Assembly (NCBI GenBank): GCA_964616915.1
Contig: CAZTSL010000002.1
Coordinates: 12,090-76,089 of the forward strand
Direction: 5' to 3'
DNA: 64,000 bases
DNA from: an uncultured bacterium
GTDB taxonomy: Bacteria > Myxococcota_A > CAZTSL01
Of the stretch, positions 11,886 to 56,933 are shown piece by piece. A program made the translations under genes and the position numbers. The notes under the pieces were generated by a model. The model saw nothing but the letters and a program-made list of their open reading frames with translations. It did no database searches and had not been told where the DNA came from. Position 1 is the stretch's first letter, and each line of letters opens with the position of its first letter.

Positions 11886-12001
11886 TCCCCCGAACCTGTT
11901 TCTTTTCACACAGAATTTTGCGGGATTTCACACAAAAGGAGAGGGGAGGATCGCCTGGTGGCACGATACACCCACACGAAGGGGGGAGGAGGGGACGACG
12001 A

Positions 12002-14370: not shown

Positions 14371-14429
14371 CTTCTTCCCTCACGCAAGCATGGATCGTTT
14401 CGGATTTCCGGTTCCTGGTTCCCGCGCCG

Positions 14430-27800: not shown

Positions 27801-28026
27801 CATCGATGAGGATACGGCCCTCGCCCAGATCTGGGCGGCCAAGGAGTCGTTCGTGAAAGCGCTCGGCACCGGGTTCCGGGGACTCGACTTCCGGCAGATC
27901 GAGGTCAAGGAGATCCGGCCCGACGGCCGTGTCCTCCTCGATTTCCACCGCAACACCCTCCCCCCCTATCTCACCCGCGTCACGAAGAAGGAAGGCTACG
28001 TCCAGGCCACGACCCTCTTCGGATGA
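18805..28026 (+). CDS. PUFA-synthase-like iterative type I PKS/FAS megasynthase: KS - AT - second KS-like domain - 4 tandem ACP - KR - FabA-like DH - C-terminal Sfp-type phosphopantetheinyl transferase (3073 aa)
   Basis: KS1: TTHAACASAV, EAHGTATPVGD, KSQIGHTLGAAG. AT: GQGSQYVGMG, GHSLGEYAAL. KS2-like: QSNNACASTAIA, TNTKGFTGHAMGAG. Four ACPs: DLGIDSNKAPELI repeated four times. KR: LLTGGARGITAGISK. DH: LLDHAIEGTPVVPAI. PPTase: GIDLVDL and KESFVKALGTG. Confidence 0.9.
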   Translation: MRSCVRRNDMDSQARSLVNPTSPNSGKDPIAIVAVAAVSPIGNGAETFWRNTCGKADGIIEVPRSRWNHDLYYDPDRKAPNKTYSRLGGFVLDDGFDRRDLGVNPMDARAMDIVIRMALAAAYELFSQSGYLKRDFDRSRCAVILGNAKGGVGVRDNTIRQVYFHAAYDALRRNEHFRRLAPDLQEAILGTWPKEALAGCTPVHDGSMTGWLGNVVAGQIARYLDLSGPSFTTHAACASAVAALACAVDGLQRGEFDLAVSGGASSCMSPAVFVEFSKINALSPDGSRPFDVTRNGFVMAEGAALLLLKRYHDAVRDGDRIIAVIRGIGAASDGRSKSPTAPRETGQILAIRRALQAAGCERSGIGLVEAHGTATPVGDRTEVRSLQRVLGHPASDLPIHLTSGKSQIGHTLGAAGAFGVLRAALAIETGTIPPSIHCERPDPVITPPFQVATEPIPWKGKGPRRALVNSFGFGGTDFSVVLEEPGPSGTHVTVRADLQQSKGNDSTPAPERGSTMNAALRPHGSRLAFLFPGQGSQYVGMGKPLYDRYAIVRETFEEADDVLHKPLTKLIFEGPEEDLKDTKNLQPALITISVAYFRLLASLGIRPDLVAGHSLGEYAALVAAEVLDFADILKIVALRGEFMSLAPGKMAAIMAEEEKIVAVIETIPEVWIANRNSPRQFVISGSVAGIDLACKKLREAGVKRVYPLPVSAPFHCPLQQGFSDRFAEILEGYDFRPPTIPILTNVTGGFHSNDPAEIRRRMVEQCYSSVNWVANMETVEAFGVRTVVETGPGIVLCGLGNVIWDGRIETLAFQDNKRNIIFDELVEKLQWAVDPGMRHPETDTSGKGVTPGPKPARAIETTHTAEAPQRKTPTEGGRRENGGMEERNERFVSHLLEDDTLELANDFAFSAFARRHREMINGMIRHLYETERASRPQVVVTGVNLGLPGKARAVFGEENWKRLVQGENRIDPLDEETQRRILEKNIIRTLKSPTGGLPVDVPVRKLSEVIHLAGQLGEFDLRKDYGIEERLDETLDISFRLSLASTIEALRDACIPLIPHYETLANGKRRFTKFALPPEIGDRTSVWFGCAFPGLENILDEVSKMLAWRFTSLNQGVFEELERIYGELLDVVEDPAHRSQLYRWYAEAFSKLRAHTPKEAPVYRFNRKFLFRILGSMGASQIAQFIGARGLAIQSNNACASTAIAKSLGAMLIRQGEADCVIVTGSDAVTARQSIEYIGAGFLASGAATTEKIVERAAKPFDRDRNGMILGAGVGTVILEKESLPERRGVVPKALFIAGKMANSAFHATRLHPQHIAEVMQDLFRDLERDYGITPQEIARETVFVSHETYTPARGGSAQAEIRALRETFGPAANQVLITNTKGFTGHAMGAGIEDAASVEILDTGEVPPVANLENPDPELGDLRLSRGEKADPKYALRLAAGFGSQICITFEAAVPGPSGLRDEARHARFLAEVTGIEHPETEIVHRTYRVKLPPKDQAVLERMQRARAKEKPVTPAAATPGKPTATPTRESRGTPPAASPTTTTAGKPATPTLTETASPLSASDITERVLEEVCAFTGYERDEVDPKAHIEDDLGIDSNKAPELIDFIEEKLGVEIPNEVASRIETIEQIVEAVSQRGSIPTPQPTPDAAKGHAEPLSPISSPPAPDSAPKGDLVSRVIEAVCAFTGYERDEVDPKAHIEDDLGIDSNKAPELIDFIEEKLGVEIPNEVASRIETIEQIVEAVAKNGNLPGAFRHLLPAEKETPTETRAPNSEAASIAERVIEAVCAFTGYERDEVDPKAHIEDDLGIDSNKAPELIDFIEEQLGVEIPNEAASAIQTIEEIVETIESGREKREPAPPAARAGDESAPPQAPPSPPSGDRGTLEAAQTPPPTAEASYGEILEAVIRHVCAFTGYERDEVDPKAHIEDDLGIDSNKAPELIDYIEAQMGVEISNEEATELERIEEIARIVFEKRSASPRVDQSQPAASPPAETTHEARLERRIVTWQEIEGEGSDAAFRQISDLPIALVGALSALTPFLEEAHVIPFDFEQPDEAWRERVAATGPFAGLCYLHGASAQRVHTEHLARLATLIAELPMRKGAFLLALTPEQRNDDPEFEAVCGLFASIQHERSEAVVVRIASGISLDDPLRTVAERVLRAPGGMEIRFSQDRILTPIVTSAPPLGPCLDLTPSDTVLLTGGARGITAGISKEIARRHHCRIALIGRTPLPQDLPEHLHDLHPRMSQEELRAKIRERLKERGASVRPTDVAREIERMRASHEAAENIGAISEAGAEVVYFPCDITDRNALARTIEEIDARFGRITGIVHGAGIKWDAPLEKLTPRHWEAVFAPKVGAVESLSALIDPDSLRFFVVLSSIAALYGNATQGNYAAANRAVVALMRNLHEAHGVLAKAIYCPPISGVGMAADPGILRHLAQLGIDYGTPEALAAFVAEEIAVADPEVAVAWHGRVGALARYFAQAPSGGDPGRSGGGNGTRQPTPLSPAEGSDSFFDRVLEHQPNERIVLEKTFDVERDITLLDHAIEGTPVVPAIRGIEVFLAAASRLFPGKRIESLKDLRFLKWLKLEGGKPLTVRVKAEGTPEACKVYIEQEIRSPRGAQPGSYRIHFSGTVVFADQTSAASGLFSLEGLEEAGVSPKEIYRPDRFFHGPEFQVLGGVSRWGIEGAEGEYAPPKTIPGGNHLPRGIHPEHFLVLEALEQLAGIFDMRFHGTFALPAAFSQLRFIAAPVGPIRLRVMEVGGGAKERRFDLLALDRANRPVVSARGFTLKVIRTLVPSARFPEDTPPVPPVPGSSSMINSPLPGDGGNTQMAIAEVPLDRLEAAIRENPALIEAFLGEEEMEALLAMRHRRRRLERIGGTIAAKKAFLRYCARIEGRTPALTSLTLRHRKSGKPYLCVDGDPYPVALSIAHSGKRAVALVGRKTAGIDLVDLSSFGSEAFKRRVYTLRERILASSIAKAAEIEHFFQAGAPHQLTSPLPESALIDEDTALAQIWAAKESFVKALGTGFRGLDFRQIEVKEIRPDGRVLLDFHRNTLPPYLTRVTKKEGYVQATTLFG
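23500..24720 (+). repeat. Four tandem about 310-360 bp direct repeats, near-identical at nucleotide level, encoding the ACP domains of the megasynthase
   Basis: Repeat unit gtctgcgcgttcacggggtatgagcgcgacgaggtcgatccgaaggcccacatcgaggacgatctggggatcgactccaacaaggcc... seen starting near 23524, 23851, 24160 and 24531. The repeats also appear as repeated peptides in the antisense ORFs. Confidence 0.9.
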
Positions 28027-36339: not shown

Positions 36340-38049
36340 ATGTCTGAACTGATCCAGCCGCACGGTGGCGAACTCAAGGAACTTTGCGTCCGGGGACCGG
36401 AACTCGAAGCACTCAAGAAGGAAGCGCTCGAGTTGCCTTCGATCACGCTGACGGAGCGGCAGCTCTGTGATATCGAACTCCTCCTCAACGGCGGCTTCTC
36501 CCCCCTCACAGGATTCATGAACCGGGAGACCTACGAGCGCGTCGTCTCGGAGATGCGATTGCCCGACGGAACGCTCTGGCCGATGCCGATCACGCTCGAC
36601 CTGCCGGCGGAGCGGGCGGAGACCCTCTCGAAGGGGGACCGGGTGGCACTCCGTGAGCCGGAGGGGATGCTCCTTGCGGTGATGACGGTGGACGAGGTCT
36701 GGGAACCGGACAAGACGCGCGAAGCCCAGCTCGTCTTCGGGACCGAGGACGATACGCACCCCGCGGTCGATTACCTGATGCACACGGCGGGGAGCCACTA
36801 CGTGGGAGGAACACTCCAGGGCGTGCAGCTCCCCCACCACTACGACTTCCTGCGGCTGCGGCACACGCCGGCGGAACTGCGCGAGCATTTCCGGAAGCTG
36901 GGGTGGCGCAGGGTCGTGGCCTTCCAGACGCGCAACCCGATGCACCGCGCCCACAAGGAGCTGACCGTCCGTGCCGCCAAGGAGGTGGAGGCCAACCTTC
37001 TCATTCACCCCGTGGTCGGGATGACGAAGCCGGGGGATGTCGATCATTTCACGCGGGTGCGCTGTTACGAGAAGATCATGCCGAAGTATCCGCACGGAAC
37101 CGCGATGTTGAGCCTTCTCCCCCTGGCGATGCGGATGGCCGGCCCGCGAGAGGCGCTCTGGCATGCGATCATCCGCAAGAACTACGGATGCACCCACTTC
37201 ATCGTCGGACGCGACCATGCTGGCCCCGGCAACGACAGGAACGGAAAACCCTTCTACGGGCCCTACGACGCGCAGGAGATGGTCGCCCGCTACGCCGACG
37301 AACTCGGTGTCCAGATGGTCCCCTTCAAGCTGATGGTCTACGTGGAGGACCGTGCGGAGTACATGCCGATCGATGAGGTACCGCCGGAGAGCCGGACCCT
37401 GACGATCTCCGGCACGGAGCTGCGCCGCCGCCTCAACGAAGGGCTCGATATTCCGGAGTGGTTCACCTATCCCGAGGTCGTCGAGGAGCTGCACGTCTCG
37501 CATCCGCCGCGCAGCAAGCAGGGCTTCACCGTCTTCTTCACCGGCCTCTCCGGCTCCGGGAAATCGACGATCGCCAACGCCCTCATGGTCGCCTTCCTCG
37601 AGGAGGGACGCCGTCCCGTGACCCTCCTCGACGGGGACATCGTGCGCACGAATCTTTCGAGTGAACTCGGCTTCTCCAAGGAGCACCGTGACCTCAACAT
37701 CCGCCGGATCGCCTTCGTGGCCAGCGAGATCACGAAGAACCACGGGATCGCGATCTGCGCCCCGATCGCGCCCTACGCCGAGGCCCGCCGCTACGCCCGC
37801 AAGCTGATCGAGCAGTACGGCGGCTTCATCGAGGTTCACATCTCGACCGATATCTCCGTGTGCGAACAGCGGGATCGCAAGGGGCTCTACGCCAAGGCGC
37901 GTCAGGGTCTCATCAAGGGGTTCACCGGCATCGATGACCCCTATGAGGTTCCGGAGAATCCGGAACTCCGCATCGATACCGCCGAGGTGAGCGTCACCGA
38001 GGCGGTCCAGCGGATCCTCCTCCACCTCGAGAAGGAAGGCTACATCTGA
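36340..38049 (+). CDS. sat: Bifunctional sulfate adenylyltransferase (ATP sulfurylase) / adenylylsulfate (APS) kinase
   Basis: N-terminal ATP-sulfurylase domain ([21 protein letters not shown]) fused to APS kinase ([18 protein letters not shown]-loop). RBS aaaggagaaaagATG. Confidence 0.9.
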
Positions 38050-39925: not shown

Positions 39926-40399
39926 TCACCCCGCGGTATACCAGGCGACCTCGCGCCCCTTCGTGGCCCAGAAGATCTCATGGATCTTCTTGATCGTGTC
40001 GAGCAGTTCCTGCGCATGTTCGAGGCTGACTTCCACCTTGACCGCGGAGCAGAGTTTGGCGGCCTTCCAGAAGATGTCGTGCAGATCGGGGTACTGCTGC
40101 AGGTGGGGCGGCTTGAAGTAGTCGGTCCAGAGGACGAGGAGTTCCGTCTTGGCCAGGTGCGCCTGCGCCTCCTTGATCGCGATGTAGCGCGAGAGCGTGT
40201 TGTGGTAGGCCACGAGCGCCTTGGCATCCCCCGGATCGGGGGGCGTGAGATCGAGGATCTTCTTCGTCATCGAGAGGACCGCTTCCGCGGCGATTCTCGC
40301 CGAGGCGGGGTCGTAGACCCCACAGGGACCGTCACAGTGCGCCTCCACACGTTCCGCGGGAAGCCGATGCAGGAGTCTCTCCGTCAATTTCTCGAGCAT
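39926..40399 (-). CDS. sodN: Nickel-containing superoxide dismutase precursor
   Basis: Leader MLEKLTERLLHRLPAERVEA followed by Ni-hook HCDGPCGVYDP. Four-helix-bundle length of 157 aa. RBS GAGGAG. Confidence 0.9.
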   Translation of the reverse strand: MLEKLTERLLHRLPAERVEAHCDGPCGVYDPASARIAAEAVLSMTKKILDLTPPDPGDAKALVAYHNTLSRYIAIKEAQAHLAKTELLVLWTDYFKPPHLQQYPDLHDIFWKAAKLCSAVKVEVSLEHAQELLDTIKKIHEIFWATKGREVAWYTAG

Positions 40400-41272: not shown

Positions 41273-43618
41273 ATGCACGTCCGGATACGCAACCTTTGGG
41301 CTCTGGGGTGCGGTGTGCTCCTCTTTTTCTTTTTCGCTGCCGGCGAACTTCGGGCCCAGGGGCAACCCCACCAGACGATCCTCCTCCTCGATCATTCGAA
41401 GAGCATGAAGGGGAACGATCCCTTCTTCCTGAACCACTTCGCCGCCCACCTCCTCGTCGATCTGGCGGCCCCCCGTGACGAGATCGGCATCTTCGACTTG
41501 CAATCCTCCGTCGTTCCGATGGATCCGGTCGCGGGGAGGAAAGAGGCGCTCCATGCCGCCATCGACCACCTCTCCTATGGGGGGAAAACCCCCTGCGCGA
41601 CCCCCCTTTCCCGCGCCCTTACGGAACTGAAGGAGAAACAACGGCCGGAGGCGCTTGCGAGTATCGTCTTCCTCACCGATGGGGTCTGCGACGAGGACGA
41701 TCCGATCGAGAAAGCGCTTCCCGCGCTGCAAGCGGCCAGGATCCCGGTCTTCACGATCGCGCTGGGGAAAGAGACGGAACATCGCCGGCAGTTGCAGCGG
41801 CTCGCCGAGCAGACGGGAGGAATCCCCTTCGCCGTGACGGACGCGGCGGATCTACCGGAGGTCTTCGCGAAACTCGCCGGCCGTCTCCATGGGGCGGAGT
41901 ACCAAAGCGGCATGCTCGCCCGTGGAGAACAGATCTTCGCCGCCGCCCCCTACCTCGAACGGATCGTGCTCCTCGCCGCGGGGAAGGTCGAGACGGCCCG
42001 TTTCTTCGGGCTCCATTCCCCCACCGGTCCGGTGGCCCTCGATGGGAAGAACGCCCGCATCCGCTCCTTTGCGAACCACCGTCATCCCAACGCCCCCGAG
42101 GTCTATACGATCGTGGAGATTCCGGAACCGCCCCCCGGAGAGTGGCGCTACGAGGTGGAAGGGAAAGAAGAGAAATTCTCCGTGGCCGTGATCCAGATCT
42201 TCGACCTCGTCCTCTCCCTGGAAGGGCATCCGCAACGGGTCGAGGGGAAGGAAACCGTGGAACTCGTGGCCCGGCTGGCAACCTCCCGGGGAAGAGTGCC
42301 CGATCCCGCGTTCCTGCGGCAGGTTTCGGTGACCCTCCATCACCGCCCCCCCGGCGGCGATTTTCAGCGTTGGGGTCCCCTCCCCTTCGACGGGAAAGGG
42401 GCGTTCCGCACCCGTCTTTCCCTTCCGGAACCGGGGGAACACGTCTTCTACGCCGTGGCGCGCTACCAGCAGCATCTGAACCGCCGCAGTCCGCTTCGCT
42501 CGATCGAACGCCTGGAGCCCCCCCCCGAAGGGTGCCGCCTTCGCTTCCTCGAGGCCGAGGCGTGCCATCGGAAGGGGGATGTCCCCTTCCCCGTGAGCGT
42601 GCGCCTCGAATGCGCCCCTCCCCAGACCCTCTCCGCGGCCTACCAGGAAAGCTGCACCGGCCGCCTCTTTGCCCAGTCCCCCGGGGGAGAGGGCTTTGGC
42701 GAGGTCGCATCCTTCTCGTCGGAGCCGGGAGGACGCTACACGGCCCTCGTAACGCTGCCCGAGGAGGGGCATCACCGGCTCCAGGCCCGCCTCGAGTGTC
42801 CGAACACCCGTTTCGTCTCCGGAACGAGTGATCTTTTCGTGGGGGAACTCCCCCCCCTTCTCCCGCTCGATTTCGGAACACCGGAGGGGGGGAGCGTGGC
42901 GACCCGAGGGATCGATCTTTCCCCCTGGCGTCCCTTCCTTCCCCTCGACATCACGTTCCGGCCGGAAGCGCTCACCGGCCCTTCGGCCGCATCGATCGCG
43001 GTCGATGCCGACGGAGCCGGTGGACTCCTCGCCACGCTGAAGATCGCGGGGTGCCGCTCCGAGGGGGAAGGGAACGGGGCGATCGCGATCGTCCCGAAGG
43101 GGTGTCTCTCTCCCGTCGCGCTTCCCGTCTCCTACACGGTCCACCCCACCCCCTTTCTCGCCTGCTATCGGCGGATCTATCTCGGGACGCTGGCGCTGCT
43201 CGGGGGCGCTTTCCTCCTCTACGGATTCCTCTCCCCCCCGGCATTCTCCCCCCGCCGAACGATCTGCTGGAGTGCCTCCCGGCAGGGGTGCGTGGAAAGG
43301 GACCCCACCGCCGCCACGGAGGTGCTCTTCGGGGCGTTGCATGGCCACGGGAAGGGGCGGCGTCGCTGGTATACCCCCGCCCGCCTCTACTTCGGCGGTC
43401 CCGACGACTTCCTCGGACCCAAGGGGGAAACGCCCGTGGCCTGGCTCGAAGCCACCCGCTCCGGAATCCTCCTCGTCACCCTCCAGCCGGGACAGACCTT
43501 CCTGTGCACCGAGGGGGGAGGAGAAGAACCGATCACGATGCAGGCGACCCCCCTCCATTACGGCACCGTCTACCGCGTCGATATCGGGGGTGAACACCGC
43601 TATTTCGAAATCCACTGA
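41273..43618 (+). CDS. Membrane-spanning von Willebrand factor A (vWA/MIDAS) domain protein, 781 aa; first gene of the vWA-tubulin-like cluster
   Basis: Start MHVRIRNLWALGCGVLLFFFFAAGELRAQG (signal/anchor). MIDAS LLLDHSKSM (DxSxS) plus VFLTDG. Second TM IYLGTLALLGGAFLLYGFL near residue 700. C-terminal about 130 aa tail. Confidence 0.8.
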   Translation: MHVRIRNLWALGCGVLLFFFFAAGELRAQGQPHQTILLLDHSKSMKGNDPFFLNHFAAHLLVDLAAPRDEIGIFDLQSSVVPMDPVAGRKEALHAAIDHLSYGGKTPCATPLSRALTELKEKQRPEALASIVFLTDGVCDEDDPIEKALPALQAARIPVFTIALGKETEHRRQLQRLAEQTGGIPFAVTDAADLPEVFAKLAGRLHGAEYQSGMLARGEQIFAAAPYLERIVLLAAGKVETARFFGLHSPTGPVALDGKNARIRSFANHRHPNAPEVYTIVEIPEPPPGEWRYEVEGKEEKFSVAVIQIFDLVLSLEGHPQRVEGKETVELVARLATSRGRVPDPAFLRQVSVTLHHRPPGGDFQRWGPLPFDGKGAFRTRLSLPEPGEHVFYAVARYQQHLNRRSPLRSIERLEPPPEGCRLRFLEAEACHRKGDVPFPVSVRLECAPPQTLSAAYQESCTGRLFAQSPGGEGFGEVASFSSEPGGRYTALVTLPEEGHHRLQARLECPNTRFVSGTSDLFVGELPPLLPLDFGTPEGGSVATRGIDLSPWRPFLPLDITFRPEALTGPSAASIAVDADGAGGLLATLKIAGCRSEGEGNGAIAIVPKGCLSPVALPVSYTVHPTPFLACYRRIYLGTLALLGGAFLLYGFLSPPAFSPRRTICWSASRQGCVERDPTAATEVLFGALHGHGKGRRRWYTPARLYFGGPDDFLGPKGETPVAWLEATRSGILLVTLQPGQTFLCTEGGGEEPITMQATPLHYGTVYRVDIGGEHRYFEIH

Positions 43619-43742
43619 AAGGCAATGGGGGCAATGGAGAGAGCCACCATGCAAGACGCACCGGGGAGAGCCAACGAACGAGATCTCCATCGCAACGCGG
43701 GGAGCATCCTTTTCCCACGGCAGCCATCAGGAGGAATACGCC

Positions 43743-46700
43743 ATGGCCGATCAGATCTACCCGACCTTCTTCATCGGACTGGGGGGAACCGGGGGTAAGA
43801 CGGTAAACCGGATCGCCAGGAAGTTCAAGACGAACTGGAACTACGAGACGCTGCGCAACTCCGTCGCCTTCTTCACCTTCGACACCGACCGTAGCGATCT
43901 CGAAGGGTTCAGCGACATCCCCAAGGAAAACCGTTTTCTCCTCCACATCCCCCGCAAGAAGGAGTTCGTGGATCGCGTGCGGGGCGCGGGCTACCTCGAC
44001 CCCGATCCCTTCTACACGAGCTGGATGCACCCCGACTACGGCTTCCACATCGAAGGAGGAAAGGGCGCCGGGCAGATCCGGATCGAATCACGCCTCACCT
44101 TCACCTACCGGATCGAGCATCCCGACCTGCAGCTTGGACATCGGGACATCCTCCGCGCTTTCCAGGACGCGATCGGCAGGGCACTCGATCCGGACAACAA
44201 CGCCACGAGGCGGCAGCCCGCCTACTTCCAGATCTTCTGCTTCGGTTCGATCGCCGGGGGGACGGGGAGCGGATCGTTCCTCCCCCTCGCCTATACCCTT
44301 CAACACCTCCTCCAGGAGCGAGGATGGGAAACGATCACCGCTCTTTGCCTCTTCGATCCGGAGGTCTTCGAGCCGGAGGTCCAGAACGCGCTCAAAAAGG
44401 ACATCCAGGCCAACGGCTACGCTGCGCTCATGGAGACGGACCACTTCATGCGCCTTTCGGCCGAGGGGGGACATCACTCCCTCCCGAAGAAGATCCGGTT
44501 CCATACACGGAAGGCATGGCCCCGTCTCGTCGATCGCGCCCCGGCCACGATCGTGTACCTCTGCGGAATCCCGAAACATTTCTCGATGGAGAAGATCGCC
44601 TCGATGATCAATGCCGTGGCCGATGCGAGCTACTTCCAGGTCTTCTCTCCCCTCCTCGGTCTCCAGGAGGCCGAATCGGTCAACTTCGTTCGACATCAGC
44701 TCGGGCTCGTGCAGCAGGTCTTCTCCGCCCACTACGGCGCCTTCGGCTGCTGCCTCCTTCACGTTCCGGATGAAGACATCCTCCTCTACTGCGGCCTCCG
44801 TTTCGCCGAGACGGCCCTGCGCCGCTACGTCCTCCTCGAAGGAGAGGTCGAACTCCTCGAGGGAGAGGGGGAAGAGAACCTCTCCGAGGAGGAGAAGGCC
44901 GACGCCGAAGACGAGCGCTTCTGCTTCTGGATCGACCGGAAGGCGGAAGAGGAAGTACGGGATCGAAAGAGGGAGGGCATCTTCCAGAAGATCCGGGGGG
45001 GGCGCCTCCCATCGGGAGAAACCCTCCAGGAAGTGATCGAAGCCGCGGTCGCCGAAACCCTCCAGGAGATCCCCCAGGCGATCCGCCTCAGCCGTCTCTC
45101 CACGAACGACCTCTCGGAATACCGCTACGGCCTCGATCCCTACCGGAACCGACTCGTCGAAGAACTCGCGGAATCGAAGGCCCGACTCCAACGCCATCTG
45201 CGCACCGTCACCTACGACATCGCCAACGGAACCTTCCTCGGCCGCATCTTCAAGGGCTGTCAGGCCGATCCCTTCATGCAGCGCTATGCCCTCATCGATC
45301 TCAAACGGAGACTCAGAACGGCGATCTCCGATGGACAGGAGCCCAGGAATCCCGACGACCCCACCGCATCCGCGGTCATCGATCGGCTCCGCTCCTGGGA
45401 GGACGAACTGGCCCGAACCGCACCCTATACGATGAAGGAGCGTCTCTTCCAGCGAGAGAACCGCGACTTCATCGAGACGAGGGAGCAGGCGGTCGCCGAC
45501 TTCAACCGCGTCGTCGAGGCGAATCAGCGGGCCATGGAAGCCCATGCGAAACGGGAGATCGAGGAGGCCCTCTTCCACCAGGTCATGGAACGACTCCGTG
45601 CCTTCCGTACCCTCATGTCGCTGGGCAAGGCGCTCGTGGAGGAACTGGAAGAGGAAGCCGACCGCTTCCAGCGCTCGGGCGTGCCCCCGGAGGGAGAATC
45701 GCAGGCCAACGCCTTCTTCCTCGACGAGGAGGCGCTCCAGGACCTCGAGGGCAACCGCCTCTGGAAGACCTTCTACGAAGCGGAGATCGTCCCCAAGGAG
45801 GTCGAACTCTTCCAGCCCGCCGAAATCTTCGCCGCCATCGAGGAAGCCTCCGCCCCCCGCCTCGATCCCCGGGGAAGAACCCAATCCCCCACACCAGAAG
45901 AGGTCCGCCGCGCCCTCAAGGCGAAACTCGTCCAGCTCGGGTGCAAACGCTTGCGCCCCCGGATCGTCGGCATGGAAAGGAATGTCGCCCCCCGCGATCA
46001 ACAGGGCCTCCTCATCGACGAAGCCCTCCTCCTCGAAGCGAGGTTCGTCCTCGAAAAGCGCCAGAAGGCCGGCGAAATCCTCTCCTTCGGCCCCGATGAG
46101 ATCGCCGCGTACATCCGGGAGAAGCTCGGCCATGCGAAACGGAGAAGCGGGCATCTGGCCAAGATCGAGAATCTGGAGGACCCCGAGGTGAAGCCCTGCC
46201 CGATCTCGCTCGTGGCCTTCCACGAATGCTACCAGGAGGCCCTTCCCCACCAGAACGGCTCCCTGGCCGATCATCTCCGCGAGATCTCTCCCGAAGGACG
46301 CTGGGTCGAAAACTGGCACGACCGCAAGCGGATCGTCTTCTACCAGGCCACCCTCGGCGTCCCCCTCTTCTATTTCCCCTACGTCCGAAAGACGCTGCGT
46401 CAGGCATACGAGGAACTCGACGCCAAGGGGGTCAAGGAGCGAGGCTATCCCCTCCATATCGACGCCGCCTTCGAGAAGCGGCTCTGCCCCCTCACCCCCG
46501 AAAGACTCCAGGAGTTCCTCGCCCGCAGCCTCGAGGAACGCGTCGCCCCCCGCTTCGTCCTCGGTACCCTCGCCGGCATCGTCTCCCACCAGGACGGCGC
46601 ATACCACTGGAAATTCGGCGAAAGATGGGGGGACACGCTCGGAAGTGATCTCTCCCAGGCCCTCCGGACCTACGACGCACTCGAGCCCGCGATCGCCGAA

Positions 46701-46925
46701 CGGATCTCCCGCAAACTCGAAGAGACCGAAAGGCGTCTCAAGAGCGATCCACAGCTCCGCACCGCCCTCGAAGCCCTTCGCACCACCTACGAAGAAGCGA
46801 TCCTCGACCGGAAATTCCCGAAACGACAGCTACAGGACGCCCAGACGGCCCGGATCGACGAGATCCCCATCCTCGAGAAACTCAAGAGCGCCTGTGAGGA
46901 TCTCCTCCAGAGCACGAGCGCGTAG
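43743..46925 (+). CDS. FtsZ/tubulin-superfamily GTPase with about 700 aa C-terminal extension (1060 aa); not a canonical cell-division FtsZ
   Basis: T1 loop YPTFFIGLGGTGGKTVNRIARKF (compare FtsZ GGGGxNAVNRM). T4 / tubulin signature FCFGSIAGGTGSGSFLPLA (GGTGSG). Charged, coiled-coil-like E/R-rich C-terminal region. Confidence 0.8.
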   Translation: MADQIYPTFFIGLGGTGGKTVNRIARKFKTNWNYETLRNSVAFFTFDTDRSDLEGFSDIPKENRFLLHIPRKKEFVDRVRGAGYLDPDPFYTSWMHPDYGFHIEGGKGAGQIRIESRLTFTYRIEHPDLQLGHRDILRAFQDAIGRALDPDNNATRRQPAYFQIFCFGSIAGGTGSGSFLPLAYTLQHLLQERGWETITALCLFDPEVFEPEVQNALKKDIQANGYAALMETDHFMRLSAEGGHHSLPKKIRFHTRKAWPRLVDRAPATIVYLCGIPKHFSMEKIASMINAVADASYFQVFSPLLGLQEAESVNFVRHQLGLVQQVFSAHYGAFGCCLLHVPDEDILLYCGLRFAETALRRYVLLEGEVELLEGEGEENLSEEEKADAEDERFCFWIDRKAEEEVRDRKREGIFQKIRGGRLPSGETLQEVIEAAVAETLQEIPQAIRLSRLSTNDLSEYRYGLDPYRNRLVEELAESKARLQRHLRTVTYDIANGTFLGRIFKGCQADPFMQRYALIDLKRRLRTAISDGQEPRNPDDPTASAVIDRLRSWEDELARTAPYTMKERLFQRENRDFIETREQAVADFNRVVEANQRAMEAHAKREIEEALFHQVMERLRAFRTLMSLGKALVEELEEEADRFQRSGVPPEGESQANAFFLDEEALQDLEGNRLWKTFYEAEIVPKEVELFQPAEIFAAIEEASAPRLDPRGRTQSPTPEEVRRALKAKLVQLGCKRLRPRIVGMERNVAPRDQQGLLIDEALLLEARFVLEKRQKAGEILSFGPDEIAAYIREKLGHAKRRSGHLAKIENLEDPEVKPCPISLVAFHECYQEALPHQNGSLADHLREISPEGRWVENWHDRKRIVFYQATLGVPLFYFPYVRKTLRQAYEELDAKGVKERGYPLHIDAAFEKRLCPLTPERLQEFLARSLEERVAPRFVLGTLAGIVSHQDGAYHWKFGERWGDTLGSDLSQALRTYDALEPAIAERISRKLEETERRLKSDPQLRTALEALRTTYEEAILDRKFPKRQLQDAQTARIDEIPILEKLKSACEDLLQSTSA

Positions 46926-46963: not shown

Positions 46964-49450
46964 ATGGAGCACCTCTTCATGATTCCGAACCCCACCCTCC
47001 TGATCGCCGGAGGAACGATCGGTAGAGACGTCACCGAGGTGATCGAAGCAGAGATCGAACGCCTCGCCCACTTCGGCCTGATCGAAGGACGTGAACGCTT
47101 CGACACCTTCCTCCCCGAACCGAATGGAGCGATCACCGAGGGTCTGCGCCAGCGCCTCGATCTGAACCTGAGACGCTGGGATGTACAGTTCCGAGAGCGT
47201 CCCAGCGACCGCCAACAGATCGATCTCTTCTTCGTGGCCGACCTGGCCGACCCGGAGATCACCCGGGCCTGGATGACGGCGGTGATCGAGGGGATCGAGG
47301 GATTTCTCGAGAGCATCCCCCGCCTGATCGAGGGGGGGTGCGACGTCCTCCTCCTTCCGATCCTCGTGCTCCCCCTTCTCCGCAAGCGTGGGGACCTCGA
47401 AGCCGCCGTTCCCCTCCTTTCGTTCCGCGACCGGCGCAGGGGCTGCGCCCCCATCTTCCTCATCGAGAACCAGAGCGCGAAGTTCACGATGCGTCCCGAG
47501 GAACAGGCGGATCTCGTGGCGACCTTCATCCGTCTCCTCGTCTTCGGAAACCTCCGGTATCACGAAGGGTTGCGGCGGATCTTCGAGCATCGTAGCGGGG
47601 ATCCCTTCGGGACGTTCATGATCGAGAGCGCCGAGCTTCCCACGGTCGAGGCCTTCGCCTACTGTGCGGACCGGTATGCCTGCGAGATCCTCGCCCGCGT
47701 CTCTCCGGTCAAGACCGCGGAGGGGGGAGATCTGTCGGTAACCGCGCCCTCGGGCCTCTCCCGCCCCGACCCCGCCACCCTCCACGAGGCCCTCGTGCGG
47801 CAACGGGAATGGGGGTCGCTCGAGGCACATCTGCGGGATTTCTGCGCAAGACTCCTCCCCGAGTTCCGCTTCCGCCCCGTAGGCCTCCTCGAGCCTCGGG
47901 AACGCGTCGCCGCCTTCTATACCCCCCACTGGCACGAAGCCAACCTCGAACGCCTCGACACCGCGCTCGATCGGAGCGAATACCTCCTGATCGACGAGAG
48001 CATCGCGGTCGTCGAAAAACGGGGCATCGCCACCCTCCTCGATGCGGTTCGCGATCTCGCCGCAACGATCGACCGGCGAATCGGCGTGCGAGAGGAGGGC
48101 GCAGGCGCACGGAAGCCGAAAGAGGCGCCGGAACCGGATGAAGGGGTCCATCGCTGCCGCAAACGGGTCGAACGCTTCGCCAGGGAGATCGCCGCGGAGA
48201 AGGGTTCGGCGCATCGCCGTCTCGAGCGCTTCCCCCCCCGCCCCCGCTGGGAGGCCTACCGGCAGGGCTACGAGGAACTCTGCGATGCGATCGCGGCCAA
48301 ACCCCGTTTCTCCACCCTCTGCTTCTTCGGCCTCCCCCTGGCGTTCCTGACGACCCTCTTCTCCGCTCCCCTCCTGGCGCCCCTCTTCGAGCGTTTCTCC
48401 GCTGCACTCGGGATTGAGCGTTCCTTCCTCTCCCATACGGCGGCTGCGCTCCTCACCCTTCTCCTCCTTGGCTATCTCGGGCATCTCGTCCTCGAATGGG
48501 GATGCGCCCCCCTCTACGACCTGATCGGTGATGGTTCTTCGCTGACCCAGAGGAAGGCTCCCGGCCGTCTCGGCACGATCCTCCAGAGGAGTGTCCTCTC
48601 GAAGGGGGGGGGACTCCTGGGCCATATCTGGCACCGCGTCTCCTTTGCCCGGGACCTCTGGATCATCCGGATCGAGGGGGCGCTCGAACGGCGGGTGCTG
48701 CGGGAGCGGGACGCCCTCGAACACCTGGAGCGCAGCGCGATCCGCCAGGGAGAGGGAATGCGCCGCAGGCTCGAGGAACGCGGCGCGCGCCATCTCGAGG
48801 GAGGCGCCTTCGATCCCACCGGTATCCGGCTTCCCGAAACGACGCTCCGGAGGTTCCTCTGTCCCCCCCGCTTCTTTCCCCGTCTCTACGAGGGGGACGA
48901 TCCTCCGGACCCGATCGAGGGGGAACGCGAGTTCCGGCGGGAATTCTTCTCCCCGCAATGGCGCCATTTCCCCCCCTATGCCGATCCCGGTCTCCTCGAT
49001 GCGTTCGCCCGGCGTCCCTTCCGTTCCGTCGTGACCGGTGAACGTTTCTCCCTCGACCCAGAGATCAAGCGCCATGTCGCTGCGGCGTTCGAGACCTTCT
49101 GTAACGAGACGCAGCGTCTCTCCCTCCCCCTCGAAATCGTCGAACACCGCGACCCGGATGGTTTCCGGGGGATCGAGGTCACGCTCATCCCCCCCGCCTT
49201 CTCTTCATTCTCGGAGCGCGGAACGGCGCGGGAGGAAATTTCGATCGAGGAGCCGAATCGTACCTATCGACTCACCGTCGTCTATGACATCGATGAGGCG
49301 GCATTGCCGGTCGAAGGGGGAGGAGAGACCGCTTCCCTTCCAGGAGGCGCGAGGAGGGATGCCGCGGAGGGTCGATCCGCAGGGGAAGGGGGAGAGATCC
49401 CCCCGGCCAAGGGGGGAGGGCCGATTCCTCTCCGGAGGAAGGAATCGTGA
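46964..49450 (+). CDS. Large uncharacterised protein (828 aa) with two central TM helices; N-terminus possibly a degenerate second tubulin/FtsZ-like fold
   Basis: MIPNPTLLIAGGTIGRDV (GxGGxG-like) ... GGCDVLLLPILVLPL. TM segments FSTLCFFGLPLAFLTTLFSAPLLAPLF and AALLTLLLLGYLGHLVL. 38-nt gap after the tubulin-like gene. Confidence 0.5.
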   Translation: MEHLFMIPNPTLLIAGGTIGRDVTEVIEAEIERLAHFGLIEGRERFDTFLPEPNGAITEGLRQRLDLNLRRWDVQFRERPSDRQQIDLFFVADLADPEITRAWMTAVIEGIEGFLESIPRLIEGGCDVLLLPILVLPLLRKRGDLEAAVPLLSFRDRRRGCAPIFLIENQSAKFTMRPEEQADLVATFIRLLVFGNLRYHEGLRRIFEHRSGDPFGTFMIESAELPTVEAFAYCADRYACEILARVSPVKTAEGGDLSVTAPSGLSRPDPATLHEALVRQREWGSLEAHLRDFCARLLPEFRFRPVGLLEPRERVAAFYTPHWHEANLERLDTALDRSEYLLIDESIAVVEKRGIATLLDAVRDLAATIDRRIGVREEGAGARKPKEAPEPDEGVHRCRKRVERFAREIAAEKGSAHRRLERFPPRPRWEAYRQGYEELCDAIAAKPRFSTLCFFGLPLAFLTTLFSAPLLAPLFERFSAALGIERSFLSHTAAALLTLLLLGYLGHLVLEWGCAPLYDLIGDGSSLTQRKAPGRLGTILQRSVLSKGGGLLGHIWHRVSFARDLWIIRIEGALERRVLRERDALEHLERSAIRQGEGMRRRLEERGARHLEGGAFDPTGIRLPETTLRRFLCPPRFFPRLYEGDDPPDPIEGEREFRREFFSPQWRHFPPYADPGLLDAFARRPFRSVVTGERFSLDPEIKRHVAAAFETFCNETQRLSLPLEIVEHRDPDGFRGIEVTLIPPAFSSFSERGTAREEISIEEPNRTYRLTVVYDIDEAALPVEGGGETASLPGGARRDAAEGRSAGEGGEIPPAKGGGPIPLRRKES

Positions 49451-52290
49451 AGGAACTCCTCGAAACCTTCCTGGCCTGGTTCGTCGCTTTGACGATGAGC
49501 GGCACGTTCGGTTTCGTGCTCGCCTTCGGCGGCGGGCTGCTGGGCGCCCTGCTCCTCGTCGGCCTGGTCTGGCTCCCCTCCCGCGGGCGCACGCGCCCGG
49601 CCGGCGGGATCGCCTGGGCGCTGGGCACCGTCTCTTTCCTCGGGATCTTCCTCCTCGGCCTCCTCGTCGATCTCCTCCTGGGGGGGGAACTCGAAATCCG
49701 GACGATCGGGCGCCTCCCCGTGCTCGCGAAACTCGTTCCCCTGGCCCACGTTCCCCGGGTTGCCCTCCCCCTCTACCAGGCCCTCTTCCTCCTCGTCGAT
49801 CTCCTCATCGTCTGGGGGGTGTGGCGGATCGTCTGCGCGGCCGATCACCGGGGGGCCTTCGCCGGTCACCCCTCGATCGGGCTCACCGGTCGTCTCGATC
49901 CGTGGCGGATCGATCCCTCCTTCCGGCGGTGGTTCCGCTTCGTGGCGTGGGGGTGGAGTCTCGTGGTCGTGATCGCCTTCGTGGGGATCGTGCGCAAGAG
50001 TTTCCCCCTCTCCCCAGCCTCCTGGGTGGCGGGGGAGATCTTCGCCCTGGGGGCCCTGGCCACCCTCTACGCCCGGGGGAAGGCCCCGGTCGAGGCCGAG
50101 GCCGAGGAACCGGAGGAGGATACGGAGCAAGCTCCGGCCGTCCCCTCCCCCCTCGACAAGCTCGAGCGCCTCCTCGACGAGGCGGGCTACGAGATCCGGG
50201 AGCCCCGACGCGAACTCGATCCCCAACGGGGTGTCGAGGGGCGGGTTCCCTTCACCTCCCCCCTCCTCCAGGAGTTCTCCCCTCTCCTCTTCGGCGGTCC
50301 TCCCTGGCAGCACCAGGAGGCCGGGGTCGCGCGCCTCGCCGGGATGCTCGCCGAAATGCACGACACCCCCCAACGGGAAGCGGCGCTGCTCCTGCAGGGG
50401 GCCTACGGGAGCGGACGCAGCACCCTCCTCTTCGCCCTGGCGCTCACCGTGGCCCTGGAGGTGAACCGGAACGTCCTCTTCATCGAGCCGGATCGGACGC
50501 GGGCAGCGGGACGATTCAAGCGCTTCGACACGGTCGTCCGGCGTTCGAGCCTCCGATGGAGCCTCCCCCGCTCGCTCGATTCAGCGCTCGAAGAGGCTGG
50601 CGCCGGCAAAGGGGTCGATCTCTTCGCCGAGGGGCGCATGCCCCTTCTGCGTCTCACGACCCCTCGGGAACTCGAACACGATCTTTCCGAGGCAACACGG
50701 GGGGACCCACAGCAGACCGCCCGGCTACGCCGCGCCTTCCACGAGGCCCTCTCCCTCGTCGTCGTCGATGACGTGGATGGCTATGCCCCGGAAGCGTTGG
50801 CGGAACTCGGGCTCCTCCTCCACCGCCTGCGGCTTCGCGTTCGGCAGGAACAAGCGCGGCAGATGTCACTCGTGGTCGCGCTTTCGGCCAGGGCCGGTTT
50901 CGGGGTGGATGCGGTCCGGATCTTGACGGGGATGGAGCGGATCGAGATGCTCCCCTGCACCGCTGCGCCGCAGTGCAAGCGGCGGATTCGATTCCTCTTC
51001 CCCACCCGTCCCGATCCGCACCCCCTCTCCCGACTTCCCTTCCACGAGGCGGGGATCCGGACCTATGCGACCTGGGATCTCGACGCGCCCGCCCCCTTCT
51101 CCTTTCCGGAGCGTCACCCCCCCGTGGGTACCCTCTTCGAATCCCCCCCTTCGCTGCAGCCTCCCCCCCCGGTCTCGGAGGGGAGTGCTGCGGGGGCCTG
51201 TGATCCCCTCCGCGCAGAGGTCACCTTTCTGACGGGCGGTTTTCCCCTCTTCGATGTCGTGGAAGGGGAGAGCCGGCACTTCGGGAGCGTATCGGGGAAG
51301 AAGATGCACGGGGTCTTCCACCTCGTCTCCCCCGATCCCCTCTCCGAGGCGCTCCTCGATATCGATATCCCACGGGTGGCGCGGACCTTCCGCCCCTTCC
51401 CCTTCGACGAGGCGCGGGTCACGAAACACCTTCGCCGCTGCGAGCCCGCCGCGGCTTCCACCCTCCGGGAGATCTTTGGGGAGGCGCGCGTCGCGGCGTT
51501 CCTCGAGCGCTTCCCCGCCGCAAAGGTTCGGGAATTCTGGGATCTTCGGGAGGATCGTCTCGTGCGGGACACCTGGATCGATCCAACCCTCCTCCCGCCC
51601 GAAAGGGGGGGAGAAGGGGAACCTTGGACGCGCGGCCTCGAGGGCGTGATCGCGCATCCCCCCGAGGGGATCGCCCCCCTCCTCGTGCCGGGGCGGATCG
51701 TCGGCAAAGGGCGGGAGGCCTTCCTCCTCGAGGAGGCGGGACGGCTCACCCCGCACCCGACCCCCACCTTCACCCGGCCGATACGCAGCGTCTCCCTCCA
51801 CGACGCGGAGGTCCTCTGGCGAAAGACCCTCACGCTCCGCCTCGAGGAAGAGGAGGTGACGCTCACCGCGGCGGAGGTGGTGGGGGAGATCGAAGAGCAG
51901 ATCTTCGGGATGCGCCGTCACAGCGCGGATGGCGTACGTCTGGGGGAAGAGCGCTTCGAGTCGCCGATCCCCTTCCGCAGACGGGGACATGCCCTCCAGC
52001 TCGAAATGCCGGTCAAGGGGGTTCGCTCGGCCACGGCCTTCTCGCTTGCGCTTTCCCTCCTCTCCCCCCTCTCCGAAGATCTTCTCGATGCCGCCTTCAT
52101 CCCGGGGGGGGTCCTCCTCTTTGGCCGGGTTTCCCTCGACCTCCTGGCCCCCTGGCGGAGCACCGAGGCCCTCCGGGAACTCGTCGCCCTTTCACGCTGG
52201 TTGACCGAACGGGCGGTCAGGGCACTCGACGATTTCGCCAAGGACCTTCCCCACTCCCCAGACGAAGCCCGGGACCGGTCTCAGGAATAG
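49447..52290 (+). CDS. Membrane-anchored protein (4 N-terminal TM) with atypical P-loop NTPase-like domain (947 aa)
   Basis: GTG start overlapping the upstream stop (translational coupling). Four hydrophobic helices. Walker-A-like [18 protein letters not shown] (Arg in place of Lys). Walker-B-like [11 protein letters not shown]. Confidence 0.55.
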
Positions 52291-55170: not shown

Positions 55171-55281
55171 GGTGTCAGGCCGCGGGCTTCCGTTTCGCAG
55201 GGGGCAGGGGAGCGTTCCGCGTTCATCCGATCGATGCCGGCCAGGTGTCAGGCCGCGGGCTTCCGTTTCGTAGGGGGCAGG
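55171..55281. repeat. 38-bp direct repeat (two copies, about 35 bp apart) duplicating the 3' coding end of the FHA-histidine-kinase gene into the intergenic region
   Basis: ggtgtcaggccgcgggcttccgtttcg(c/t)agggggcagg at 55171-55208 and 55244-55281. Copy 2 encodes the C-terminal ...LPLLPPTKRKPAA of the kinase. Confidence 0.7.
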
Positions 55282-56933
55282 AGCGGCAGGAAGAGGGTGA
55301 AGGTCGATCCCTTGCCCGGACGGGAGCGAACTTCGATCGAGCCCTTGTGCTCCTTGACGATCTTCTGCGTCACGGGAAGCCCAAGGCCCGTTCCGCGTGA
55401 GCCCTTCGTGCTCATGAACATGTTGAAGATCCGGGGGAGATCGGAGGCGGGGATCCCCACGCCGTTGTCCTCCACACAGACCCGTACCCCCTGCCGCTGC
55501 GGATCGTGACAGGTGGTGACCCGCACGCATGCCTCGGGACGCTCCTCCACCGCATCGAGGGCGTTCGTCACGAGGTTGAGGATCGCGCGGTGGATCCCCA
55601 CCCTGTCGATCTCGATGGCGGGAAGGTGGGGATCGAGTTCCTGGACGAGTGCGATCTTCGACTCGGCGGCGCGGTCACGGAGCAGCTCGACGACGGAGGA
55701 GACGATCTCGTTGAGATCGGCCGACACGTATTCCGGCTCCCGTTCCTTGGCGTAGTCGAGCATGTTCATGACCATGTCGGAGATCTTCCCCAGGCTCCGC
55801 TGGAGTACCTGCCAGCCGACCTCGACGTCCTCCATCTTGCCACTCTCGATCCCGAGTCTGATGAGGGAGGATCCCCCGTTGATGCCGTTCAGAATGTTCT
55901 TGACGTAGTGGGCGAGTCCCGCAACGGTCTGTCCGATGCCGGCCAGGCGCTCGTTGCGGAGGTTCTCCGCCATCAAGGCCACGTTCTCCACGGCAACCCC
56001 CGCCTCGAAGCCGATGATCGTCAGGAGCTGGAGATCTTCCTTCGTGTAGCGGGAATAGCCGTAATCGTCGAGATGGATGATGCCGAGGATCTTCGTGCGG
56101 CTGCGCAACGGGACGCACATCGCCGAGCGGATCTGGTAGTTGAGGACGCTCTTGCCCTCCTGGAAGCGCTGGTCGTGCATCGCATCGTTGGTGATCACCG
56201 ACTCCCCGCTCTCCAGGACGTGGTTGATGATCGTCTTGCTCAGCGTGATCGAGCGCTTCCCCTCCTTGCCTTCGCCCGGTTCGAGCACTTCCTCCTTTTT
56301 CCCCTGGCGCACGGCCTTGGGGATCAGTTCCCCCGTCTCCTCCTCGAGGAGCATGATGAAACCGCGGTCGGCCCCGATCACCTCGAAGATGAGATCGAGA
56401 ATCCGGTCGAAGAGGTCCTCGATGCTGAACTCCTGCATCAACCGGTTGATCTCGTAGATCGTCATCAGGTTCTTGTGCGCCTTCTGGAGCGTCTCGAGAT
56501 CCCCTTCGGGGAGGGTCCTGTCGAGAAGCGCCTTGGCTTCGAGGCTCGATACGGAGAGCTGGATGTCCGAATCGGGATCGCGGTCGTCGCTGACGACCCG
56601 GACATCGGGGTAGCGTTTCCCCCTGTCCGTGCCCCCCGGCTCCTCCCACTCCCGATGGAACTCGAGCTGAATGCCCCCCATCGTGATCCGGTCGCCGTGC
56701 TCGAGGCGTTTTTCCGAGATCTTCTCGCCGTTTACGTAGGTCCCGTTCGAGGAATTGAGGTCCTTGATGTAGCAGATGCCGTTCTTGCGGACGATGACCG
56801 CGTGATGCCGGGAGACTTTCTGCCCCTCGAGACAGAGCGTGTTGGAAGGATCCCGGCCCACCGTCGTCTTCGGCTGGTCGAGCGGAAAACCGAAGCCCTC
56901 CCGCGGACCATGGATGATCGTCAGAAAGTCCAA
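55248..56933 (-). CDS. FHA-GAF-histidine kinase (cytoplasmic sensor kinase); no adjacent response regulator
   Basis: FHA: TTVGRDPSNTLCLEGQKVSRHHAVI...NGTYVNG. GAF region. HisKA and HATPase boxes (LAHYVKNILNGI, NLVTNALDAV, DNGVGI, GTGLGLPV). Confidence 0.85.
   Translation of the reverse strand: MDFLTIIHGPREGFGFPLDQPKTTVGRDPSNTLCLEGQKVSRHHAVIVRKNGICYIKDLNSSNGTYVNGEKISEKRLEHGDRITMGGIQLEFHREWEEPGGTDRGKRYPDVRVVSDDRDPDSDIQLSVSSLEAKALLDRTLPEGDLETLQKAHKNLMTIYEINRLMQEFSIEDLFDRILDLIFEVIGADRGFIMLLEEETGELIPKAVRQGKKEEVLEPGEGKEGKRSITLSKTIINHVLESGESVITNDAMHDQRFQEGKSVLNYQIRSAMCVPLRSRTKILGIIHLDDYGYSRYTKEDLQLLTIIGFEAGVAVENVALMAENLRNERLAGIGQTVAGLAHYVKNILNGINGGSSLIRLGIESGKMEDVEVGWQVLQRSLGKISDMVMNMLDYAKEREPEYVSADLNEIVSSVVELLRDRAAESKIALVQELDPHLPAIEIDRVGIHRAILNLVTNALDAVEERPEACVRVTTCHDPQRQGVRVCVEDNGVGIPASDLPRIFNMFMSTKGSRGTGLGLPVTQKIVKEHKGSIEVRSRPGKGSTFTLFLPLLPPTKRKPAA

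Follow-up and report, generated by a model that had tools for sequence, protein, structure and literature searches.

The subject of this study is a gene at positions 43743..46925 (plus strand) of a window of 64,000 nucleotides (nt), which covers positions 12,090 to 76,089 of contig CAZTSL010000002.1 from an uncultured Myxococcota_A bacterium (assembly GCA_964616915.1). The product of 1060 amino acids (aa) is a divergent member of the FtsZl1/Tubulin_2 branch of the tubulin/FtsZ superfamily. Overall, the data are best explained by a GTP-binding FtsZl1 protein with the ~700-aa tail that is standard for the family, encoded in a four-gene membrane-linked operon together with a pseudo-tubulin partner, and we give this reading a probability of about 0.6.

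The protein matches the Pfam family Tubulin_2 (PF13809) with an E-value of 4.8e-43 and 148.2 bits (gathering cut-off 27), and the match over residues 10-359 (43770..44819, plus strand) spans profile positions 2-355 of 356. The classical Tubulin/FtsZ family PF00091 stayed under its threshold (17.7 bits vs a cut-off of 33, residues 10-65 only) and Pfam returned neither FtsZ_C (PF12327) nor Tubulin_C; the genuine FtsZ proteins among our comparison sequences carry both PF00091 and PF12327. NCBIfam and PADLOC gave no match for FtsZl1. Canonical FtsZ was rejected on account of the sub-threshold PF00091 score and the missing FtsZ_C match, and the product is not a cell-division FtsZ. The initial annotation of this DNA, made from the letters alone, had proposed a tubulin/FtsZ-superfamily protein that does not serve the Z-ring, and this is supported by the weak PF00091 match, the lack of FtsZ_C and Tubulin_C matches and the membrane-linked operon described below.

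A homologue search in 5.8 billion proteins recovered 463 matches, and all of those listed carry PF13809. The top 87 homologues have 1053-1104 aa and align over 87-100 % of the query, the closest being only 36 % identical to it. The nearest relatives come from Bradymonadales and Myxococcota, followed by Acidobacteriota and Chromatiaceae, and more than 416 FtsZl1 loci are present among the GTDB species-representative genomes. Cultured carriers include Archangium gephyra, Enhygromyxa salina and Pyxidicoccus. The family was defined by Makarova & Koonin in 2010 (Biol Direct 5:33) from a 1051-aa archaeal protein and, in structure, is said to have diverged further than any other branch of the superfamily. 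Their survey comprised 113 bacterial and 8 archaeal proteins, with von Willebrand factor A (vWA) proteins, kinases, a diverged GTPase and membrane proteins as operon partners (PMC2875224), and Tubulin_2 has since been equated with these FtsZ-like proteins (PMC9871819). Our protein has the published features in common: a diverged N-terminal GTP-binding domain with GGxGG in T1, GGTGSG in T4 and inserts specific to the family between these two loops, the absence of FtsZ_C and Tubulin_C domains, about 1050 aa of which the middle and C-terminal parts are long and helical, and an operon with a membrane-associated vWA protein with intact metal ion-dependent adhesion site (MIDAS) and other membrane proteins (PMC2875224). 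The giant size is the defining architecture of this published family and not the mark of a new kind of protein. From the giant architecture that had been annotated, the size and the large charged tail therefore stand, while the unusualness that it implied does not, as both are typical of the family (PMC2875224, PMC9871819).

The gene begins with an ATG at 43743 and consists of an intact frame of 3183 nt, and the normal GC content at third codon positions (GC3 of 0.80) marks the frame as coding. The mechanically predicted open reading frame (ORF) is longer (43272..46925, plus strand). Its GTG start at 43272 was rejected because the homologues and the Pfam domain begin at the methionine at 43743, which has a good Shine-Dalgarno sequence (AGGAGG) 8 nt upstream, so we consider this ATG the real start and MADQIYPTFFIGLGGTGGKTVNRIARKF the N-terminus of the product. 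The 157 codons in front of it (43272-43742, plus strand) are Pro/Arg/Gly-rich in translation and overlap the 3′ end of the preceding vWA gene. The antisense ORFs over the gene, e.g. 44088-46607 with 839 aa, are spurious and a chance product of DNA with 65 % GC. The coding frame, the Shine-Dalgarno sequence and the length of 1060 aa bear out the limits 43743-46925 as initially annotated. The same organism is represented in public data by a fragmented metagenome-assembled genome (GCA_003694725.1, 'Deltaproteobacteria bacterium', locus tags D6795_), in which FtsZl1 is split over three fragments (437, 245 and 358 aa), each annotated as 'hypothetical protein', and the partner gene is truncated at the contig end.

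Conservation of the nucleotide-binding motifs was scored on an alignment of 97 family sequences including the query (alignment A1). The T1 loop GLGGTGG (residues 12-18, 43776..43796, plus strand) is aligned with GVGGGGG of FtsZ, and its residues G12, G14, G15 and G17 are invariant in all 97 sequences. Equally invariant are D47 and T48 of the NTD/DTD motif on strand 2, residues G108, A109, G110, Q111, R113, E115 and R117 of the T3-like loop GAGQIRIESR (residues 108-117, 44064..44093, plus strand; FtsZ GLGAGA), and A171, G172, G173, T174, G175 and G177 of the T4 signature AGGTGSG (residues 171-177, 44253..44273, plus strand; GGGTG(T/S)G in FtsZ/CetZ), as well as A223, Y226 and E231 in the helix taken as H5. 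The query keeps every one of them. T1 and T4 had already been read in the initial annotation and are indeed present, at residues 14-28 and 172-177. Since the T1, T3 and T4 motifs are intact, the copy in the window probably binds GTP. At the level of whole profiles, hhalign gave a probability of 15 % against the single sequence of E. coli FtsZ and of 65 % (E=6e-5) against a profile of 10 FtsZ sequences taken from plasmid/chromid records, the alignment being reliable only for T1, S2, T3, S4-T4-H4, S5/T5 and H5. Sequence searches of the PDB gave marginal hits only (amphiphysin with E=0.056, CetZ1 with E=0.67).

The AlphaFold2 model of the 1060-aa protein is very confident and its core matches the two-domain tubulin/FtsZ fold. 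Among the structures compared, chain 3zid_B of CetZ scored highest (21.3, 308/342), followed by 4b45_A of CetZ2 (18.5, 292/334, 3.2 Å), 3m8k_A of TubZ (17.3, 303/393), 2vaw_A of P. aeruginosa FtsZ (17.0, 257/315) and 2bto_A of BtubA (15.9, 320/413). In the model, S1 (8-13) is followed by H1 (14-29), S2 (41-47), S3 (64-66), T3 (108-111), H3 (112-125), S4 (161-169), T4, H4 (173-192), S5 (196-204), a long helix at 215-239 and a sixth strand at 270-274, and then by helices 285-301 and 304-319, a strand at 331-340 and a helix at 343-363. We read strand 270-274 as the putative S6, because it completes the six-stranded sheet. By topology and conservation, helix 285-301 (AVADAxYLQIF, cf. AANDVLxxAV in FtsZ) would then be H7 and residues 302-319 the T7/H8 region. 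The N-terminal domain (residues ~1-365) is thus predicted to form a near-complete tubulin fold.

The remaining 695 aa (residues 366-1060, 44838..46922, plus strand) are E/R-rich (D+E 18.6 %, K+R 15.5 %, E 13.2 %, R 10.8 %) and mostly helical. They are modelled as helical bundles with one helix of 72 residues (574-645) and beta-containing subdomains at 819-873 and 947-967. The tail gave no specific match when compared with PDB structures. Because the predicted template modelling score (pTM) is high, the tail seems to be packed on the core. The initial annotation had described an E/R-rich extension of about 700 aa that would form a coiled-coil arm. The composition and the length are confirmed and the arm is not: a crude scan for heptads picked out just 466-499 and 577-604, and the AlphaFold2 model suggests that folded domains, helical and alpha/beta, make up the tail rather than an extended two-stranded coiled coil.

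The gene directly downstream (46964..49450, plus strand) encodes a protein of 828 aa for which Pfam, NCBIfam and PADLOC gave no match and a k-mer-seeded search found no homologues. We assembled its family from the neighbours of FtsZl1 at 83 loci and from an exhaustive phmmer search (15 matches). In 59 of the 67 loci with enough flanking sequence, FtsZl1 is directly followed by a partner homologue, and the homology to the counterparts at other loci has an E-value of 1e-26. The N-terminal consensus PTxLxGLGxFGxxV echoes PTLFIGLGGTGGxIV of FtsZl1, and hhalign aligned the two families with a probability of 95.8-96.9 % (E=8e-9 to 1.7e-10). The alignment is collinear, residues 7-251 of the partner running against 4-367 of FtsZl1, with the T3 region deleted and the T4 glycines lost in the partner. 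As a control, the unrelated family of the fourth gene (p947) was compared with FtsZl1 in the same way and gave a probability of 0.1 %. The iterative partner profile attracted FtsZl1 proteins in rounds 3-4, and these were removed before the paralogy test. As the iterative profile had begun to draw in FtsZl1 sequences, the comparison was also repeated with a non-iterative alignment (A3, 15 sequences from single-sequence phmmer matches only), which gave 97.1 % and E=6.5e-11. The AlphaFold2 model of the partner shows the same beta-alpha order, and its top 50 Foldseek matches are mostly alpha-, beta- and gamma-tubulin and CetZ with probabilities of ~0.8-0.99. Two transmembrane (TM) segments at 449-475 and 488-510 form a hairpin. 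The partner is a degenerate, nucleotide-dead, membrane-anchored paralogue of the FtsZl1 tubulin-like domain. In Plesiocystis pacifica the neighbourhood has the same order as in the window, vWA-FtsZl1-hypothetical (~900 aa), and the equivalent gene is listed by Makarova & Koonin as 'hypothetical protein' (PMC2875224). None of the papers searched identifies the partner as a tubulin paralogue. Foldseek also matched the helical/TM-hairpin part of the partner (~260-720) weakly to AhlB, SmhB and MakA, which are tripartite alpha-pore-forming toxins (probability 0.2-0.6, very high root-mean-square deviation, rmsd), which may reflect mere long helices with a hydrophobic hairpin.

An FtsZ-type T7 (NxDxxD, or NxDxxE in alpha-tubulin) could not be aligned with confidence in FtsZl1 by hhalign, either with the single sequence or with the profile, and Makarova & Koonin found nothing past H5 reliably alignable and did not identify T6-H7 (PMC2875224). 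The conserved block after the predicted H7 (residues 302-319, SPLLGLQEAESVNFVRHQ, 44646..44699, plus strand) is the candidate equivalent of T7/H8. It is among the best conserved in the family (SPLLGAQAGEYDNYEKHQK) and has the consensus SPLLGAQAGEYDNYEKHQ with the core YDNYEK, in which N314-x-E316 resembles N-x-D of the FtsZ/tubulin T7. The copy in the window is aberrant here and reads SPLLGLQEAESVNFVRHQL, so that SVNFVR replaces YDNYEK. D313 is found in all 96 other members, N314 in 97 of 97, E/D at 316 in 77 and K317 in 84; the query keeps N314 and has S312, V313, F315 and V316, and no other of the 97 sequences lacks Asp313. The codons of residues 312-316, tcg gtc aac ttc gtt, reflect several independent substitutions and not a single error. 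If the block is the T7 equivalent, the window copy lacks its acidic residues and may bind GTP with polymer-stimulated hydrolysis impaired or absent. The initial annotation had tied its filament reading to conserved GTP contacts and a catalytic T7 loop. Loops T1-T4, which contact GTP, are conserved; a canonical T7 could not be demonstrated, and the copy in the window carries other residues in place of D313 and of the acidic residue at 316.

FtsZl1 and its partner belong to a set of four genes with the same orientation, of which the first three are separated by 124 and 38 nt and the last two overlap by 4 nt. Conservation of this cassette was counted in the 83 related loci, and TM segments were taken from a hydropathy scan. 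The first gene (41273..43618, plus strand; ORF start 41072, with the probable start ATG 41273 at Met68 of the ORF) encodes an exported or membrane-anchored vWA protein. The 848-aa ORF matches Pfam VWA (E=2.6e-11, ORF residues 103-266), and the MIDAS residues DHSKS...T...D are readable and intact. It has a hydrophobic N-terminal signal or TM segment at ORF residues 72-95 and a TM segment at 702-720 followed by a tail of ~128 aa. We predict that the protein faces the periplasm and that its tail, beyond the single TM helix, lies in the cytoplasm. The C-terminal region (660-848) is the part most often conserved at other loci, and in 37 of 71 loci a vWA homologue precedes FtsZl1 with its end no more than 400 nt away, whereas in the others it often lies at a distance of a few kb.

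The fourth gene (49447..52290, plus strand), whose start overlaps the preceding stop by the 4 nt, encodes a polytopic membrane protein of 947 aa with a degenerate DEAD/SF2-like P-loop. Approximately five TM segments lie in residues 1-190 and weak P-loop matches at 303-360, where Walker A reads GSGRST (Lys replaced by Arg) and Walker B VVVDDVD. A homologue of this gene follows the partner gene in 48 of 59 loci (homology to the counterparts at E=1e-5), and the nine homologues examined matched MZB (PF09369, formerly DUF1998) in eight cases and DEAD above the cut-off in two. The protein in the window has no C-terminal Cys cluster, i.e. the MZB Zn-ribbon. It is a membrane-anchored, mostly inactivated DEAD/MZB module with a likely structural role. 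Within this family the P-loop shows a stepwise decay across clades: a few members have Walker A with GKT, the window copy shares GSGR(T/S)T with a Nannocystaceae/Polyangia-like clade, and the Archangium/Myxococcaceae group reads DLPDPTE and has no P-loop; the MZB Zn-ribbon is kept in most homologues and lost in the clade of the window. None of the papers searched links tubulin-like proteins with DUF1998/MZB. The cassette recurs across Myxococcota, Acidobacteriota and Chromatiaceae.

The genes flanking the cassette, a Ni-superoxide dismutase (39926-40399, minus strand) and panB (minus strand), are convergent or divergent to it. Further out lie an ATP sulfurylase/APS kinase fusion (36340-38049, plus strand), HflX and an HtrA-like protease. 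No shift in composition was seen at the cassette and an Rfam scan of the 64 kb returned no RNA family. A molybdopterin oxidoreductase of 992 aa with a Tat signal and an Fe4S4 domain is encoded at 8931-11909 (minus strand). The context is that of an ordinary chromosome because this oxidoreductase, the Ni-superoxide dismutase and the ATP sulfurylase/APS kinase are nearby. At 18805-28026 (plus strand) there is also a PfaA-like synthase of 3073 aa with KS-AT, four ACP (PP-binding), KR and DH domains and a C-terminal 4′-phosphopantetheinyl transferase, which looks like a polyunsaturated fatty acid or polyketide synthase. About 3 kb downstream of the cassette, 55248-56933 (minus strand) encodes an FHA-GAF-HisKA-HATPase sensor kinase. 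An FHA-GAF-HD protein (13442-15379, minus strand) is found at a similar distance in the locus of a close FtsZl1 homologue (L001), and FHA, vWA-FHA, PP2C and two Ser/Thr kinase genes occur in the same gene string in a Pyxidicoccus locus (L003). This may be a recurrent link of FtsZl1 loci with FHA/phospho-signalling, or coincidence.

From these elements we propose a mechanism in which soluble GTP-binding FtsZl1 would pair with its membrane-anchored pseudo-tubulin paralogue, an active/inactive pairing that would resemble alpha/beta-tubulin or BtubA/B. On the cytoplasmic side of the inner membrane the pair would build an assembly that is regulated by GTP and linked to vWA and to the TM P-loop protein, and the output could be membrane remodelling, the role proposed for the family by Makarova & Koonin (PMC2875224), or transmembrane signalling. 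The copy in the window may bind GTP and be poor at polymer-stimulated hydrolysis, as the acidic residues after H7 are replaced. We put forward only tentatively a more specific version, in which the two proteins would be an obligate heterodimer with one subunit nucleotide-dead and embedded by its TM hairpin, and GTP-dependent assembly would be triggered from outside the cell via vWA and drive membrane remodelling or, in a conflict setting, permeabilisation.

Comparison with known systems gives partial likenesses. CetZ proteins (PDB 3zid, 4b45) have ~340-390 aa, a canonical T7 and a C-terminal domain, with only 15-17 % identity to our FtsZl1; unlike it, they have no 700-aa tail, vWA operon or pseudo-paralogue partner. 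In the TubZ/RepX/PhuZ group, TubZ works with TubR and tubC on plasmids, whereas the locus in the window is chromosomal and housekeeping and FtsZl1 is three times larger. A type III (TubZ) partition system was rejected, as the neighbours, at gaps of 124 and 38 nt, are the 848-aa vWA gene and the gene of the 828-aa membrane protein, and no small gene for a DNA-binding protein is adjacent. Alpha/beta-tubulin, BtubA/BtubB and the Asgard AtubA/B share with the cassette adjacent paralogous tubulin-fold genes, one of them with compromised nucleotide chemistry, and this analogy suggests that FtsZl1 and its partner are an obligate hetero-pair. In the cassette, by contrast, T3 and T4 are entirely gone from the second paralogue, which moreover has a TM hairpin, and we infer the pairing from the adjacency in the 59 of 67 loci and from homology. 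The DO-GTPase/GAP1-N2 systems (Kaur et al. 2020, eLife 9:e52696), reported from Firmicutes and Actinobacteria, likewise have a tubulin domain with a coiled-coil/alpha-helical C-terminus and a membrane vWA protein, and the Firmicute versions have two tubulin-domain genes. However, DO-GTPase, FNIII and HSP70 were not found in our operon, and a TM pseudo-tubulin and a TM-DEAD/MZB protein are not described there. The core of such systems is a DO-GTPase (TRAFAC, often paired) together with a GAP1 protein. A system of this type was rejected, as the four proteins have no GTPase match in Pfam, NCBIfam or PADLOC, the sole P-loop is DEAD-like and no extra gene for GAP1 is present, with no GAP1-specific model searched.

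Several points weigh against the reading preferred here, a GTP-binding FtsZl1 with a pseudo-tubulin partner in a membrane-linked operon. Our structural statements rest on AlphaFold models, and that of the partner is of moderate quality (mean predicted local distance difference test 77, pTM 0.67, 15 sequences), with weak Foldseek E-values of 0.015-0.15. The FtsZl1-FtsZ profile alignment loses confidence after H5, and a low-confidence hhalign stretch places the AVADA..SPLL helix on H9 of FtsZ, not on H7. Only 52 % of loci have the vWA gene as an immediate neighbour. In the literature searched we found no experimental work on any FtsZl1 member, and beyond family membership and fold the reading is what we infer. 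Moreover, at the 106 alignment columns with at least 90 % conservation the query shows 10 mismatches against a family median of 2, including R102H and D313V (both unique), R155T and D275G, and the copy could be decaying or functionally shifted. These mismatches also favour the view that it is a remnant, decaying or non-catalytic, which serves as a structural protein that binds GTP or is even inert and no longer has the ancestral FtsZl1 activity, and so do the missing MZB Zn-ribbon and the Arg in Walker A of the fourth protein and the mere 36 % identity of the best homologue. We regard this as very unlikely: the 3183-nt frame with its GC3 of 0.80 and good Shine-Dalgarno sequence is intact, as are all glycine-rich nucleotide loops, the AlphaFold2 model is very confident, and the four genes are complete and closely spaced, two of them with the 4-nt overlap. 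More divergent family members carry 14-19 mismatches and are presumably functional, and the GSGR-type Walker A is common to a whole clade and not a private defect.

Alternatively, FtsZl1 could be a self-polymerising, GTP-hydrolysing cytomotive filament like FtsZ, TubZ or CetZ, in which head-to-tail contacts let T7 complete the site of the neighbour and the tail serves as scaffold or adaptor arm. We consider this unlikely for the window copy, where Val takes the place of D313 and of the acidic residue at 316, and Gly that of D275. NxDxxD could not be aligned, Makarova & Koonin had no identifiable T6-H7 (PMC2875224), and the tail that the high pTM places on the core might occupy polymer interfaces. 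Hetero-assembly is also favoured over a homopolymer because a conserved inactive paralogue adjoins. A third possibility, which appears distinctly unlikely to us, is an NTP-dependent conflict system of the anti-phage/abortive-infection type (Kaur, Burroughs, Iyer and Aravind 2020), in which vWA or the P-loop would sense, the tubulin-like pair would be a threshold switch and the helical/TM-hairpin part of the partner the effector. Tubulin domains fused to coiled-coil/alpha-helical tails and linked to membrane vWA proteins are indeed known from predicted conflict systems (PMC7159879). In the same direction point the weak toxin matches of the partner (AhlB, SmhB, MakA; probability 0.2-0.6), the FHA, PP2C and Ser/Thr kinase genes added at related loci, and the MZB/DUF1998 and DEAD domains in the fourth-gene family. 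MZB/DUF1998 and DEAD domains occur in defence helicases too. The assignment is weakened because housekeeping genes (Ni-superoxide dismutase, panB, ATP sulfurylase, HflX) surround the locus and its composition shows no shift, the components of the cassette stay the same from genome to genome, none of the four operon proteins matched a TRAFAC GTPase in Pfam, NCBIfam and PADLOC, and none had a significant match in PADLOC-DB v2 (the best being the fourth protein to mad8, E=0.013, and the other three giving no hits). GAP1 was not recognised either, as judged solely from the lack of an extra gene and with no GAP1-specific model searched. In addition, the P-loop module is mostly inactivated and the toxin matches have very high rmsd.

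The FtsZl1 family, its architecture and its linkage with vWA are already published, and a Pfam model exists. Modestly new are the model-based structural evidence for a near-complete tubulin core with a folded, non-coiled-coil tail, the finding that the two genes following FtsZl1 encode a TM-anchored pseudo-tubulin and a TM-DEAD/MZB protein, respectively, and the unique loss of Asp313 in the window copy. FtsZl1 is widespread, with >400 loci in species-representative genomes, and the question of whether it forms filaments has been explicit since 2010. The nucleotide-dead, membrane-inserted paralogue immediately downstream points to a hetero-pair, and the natural D313V/E316V variant may be used as a built-in 'T7-mutant' comparison for the biochemistry of the family.

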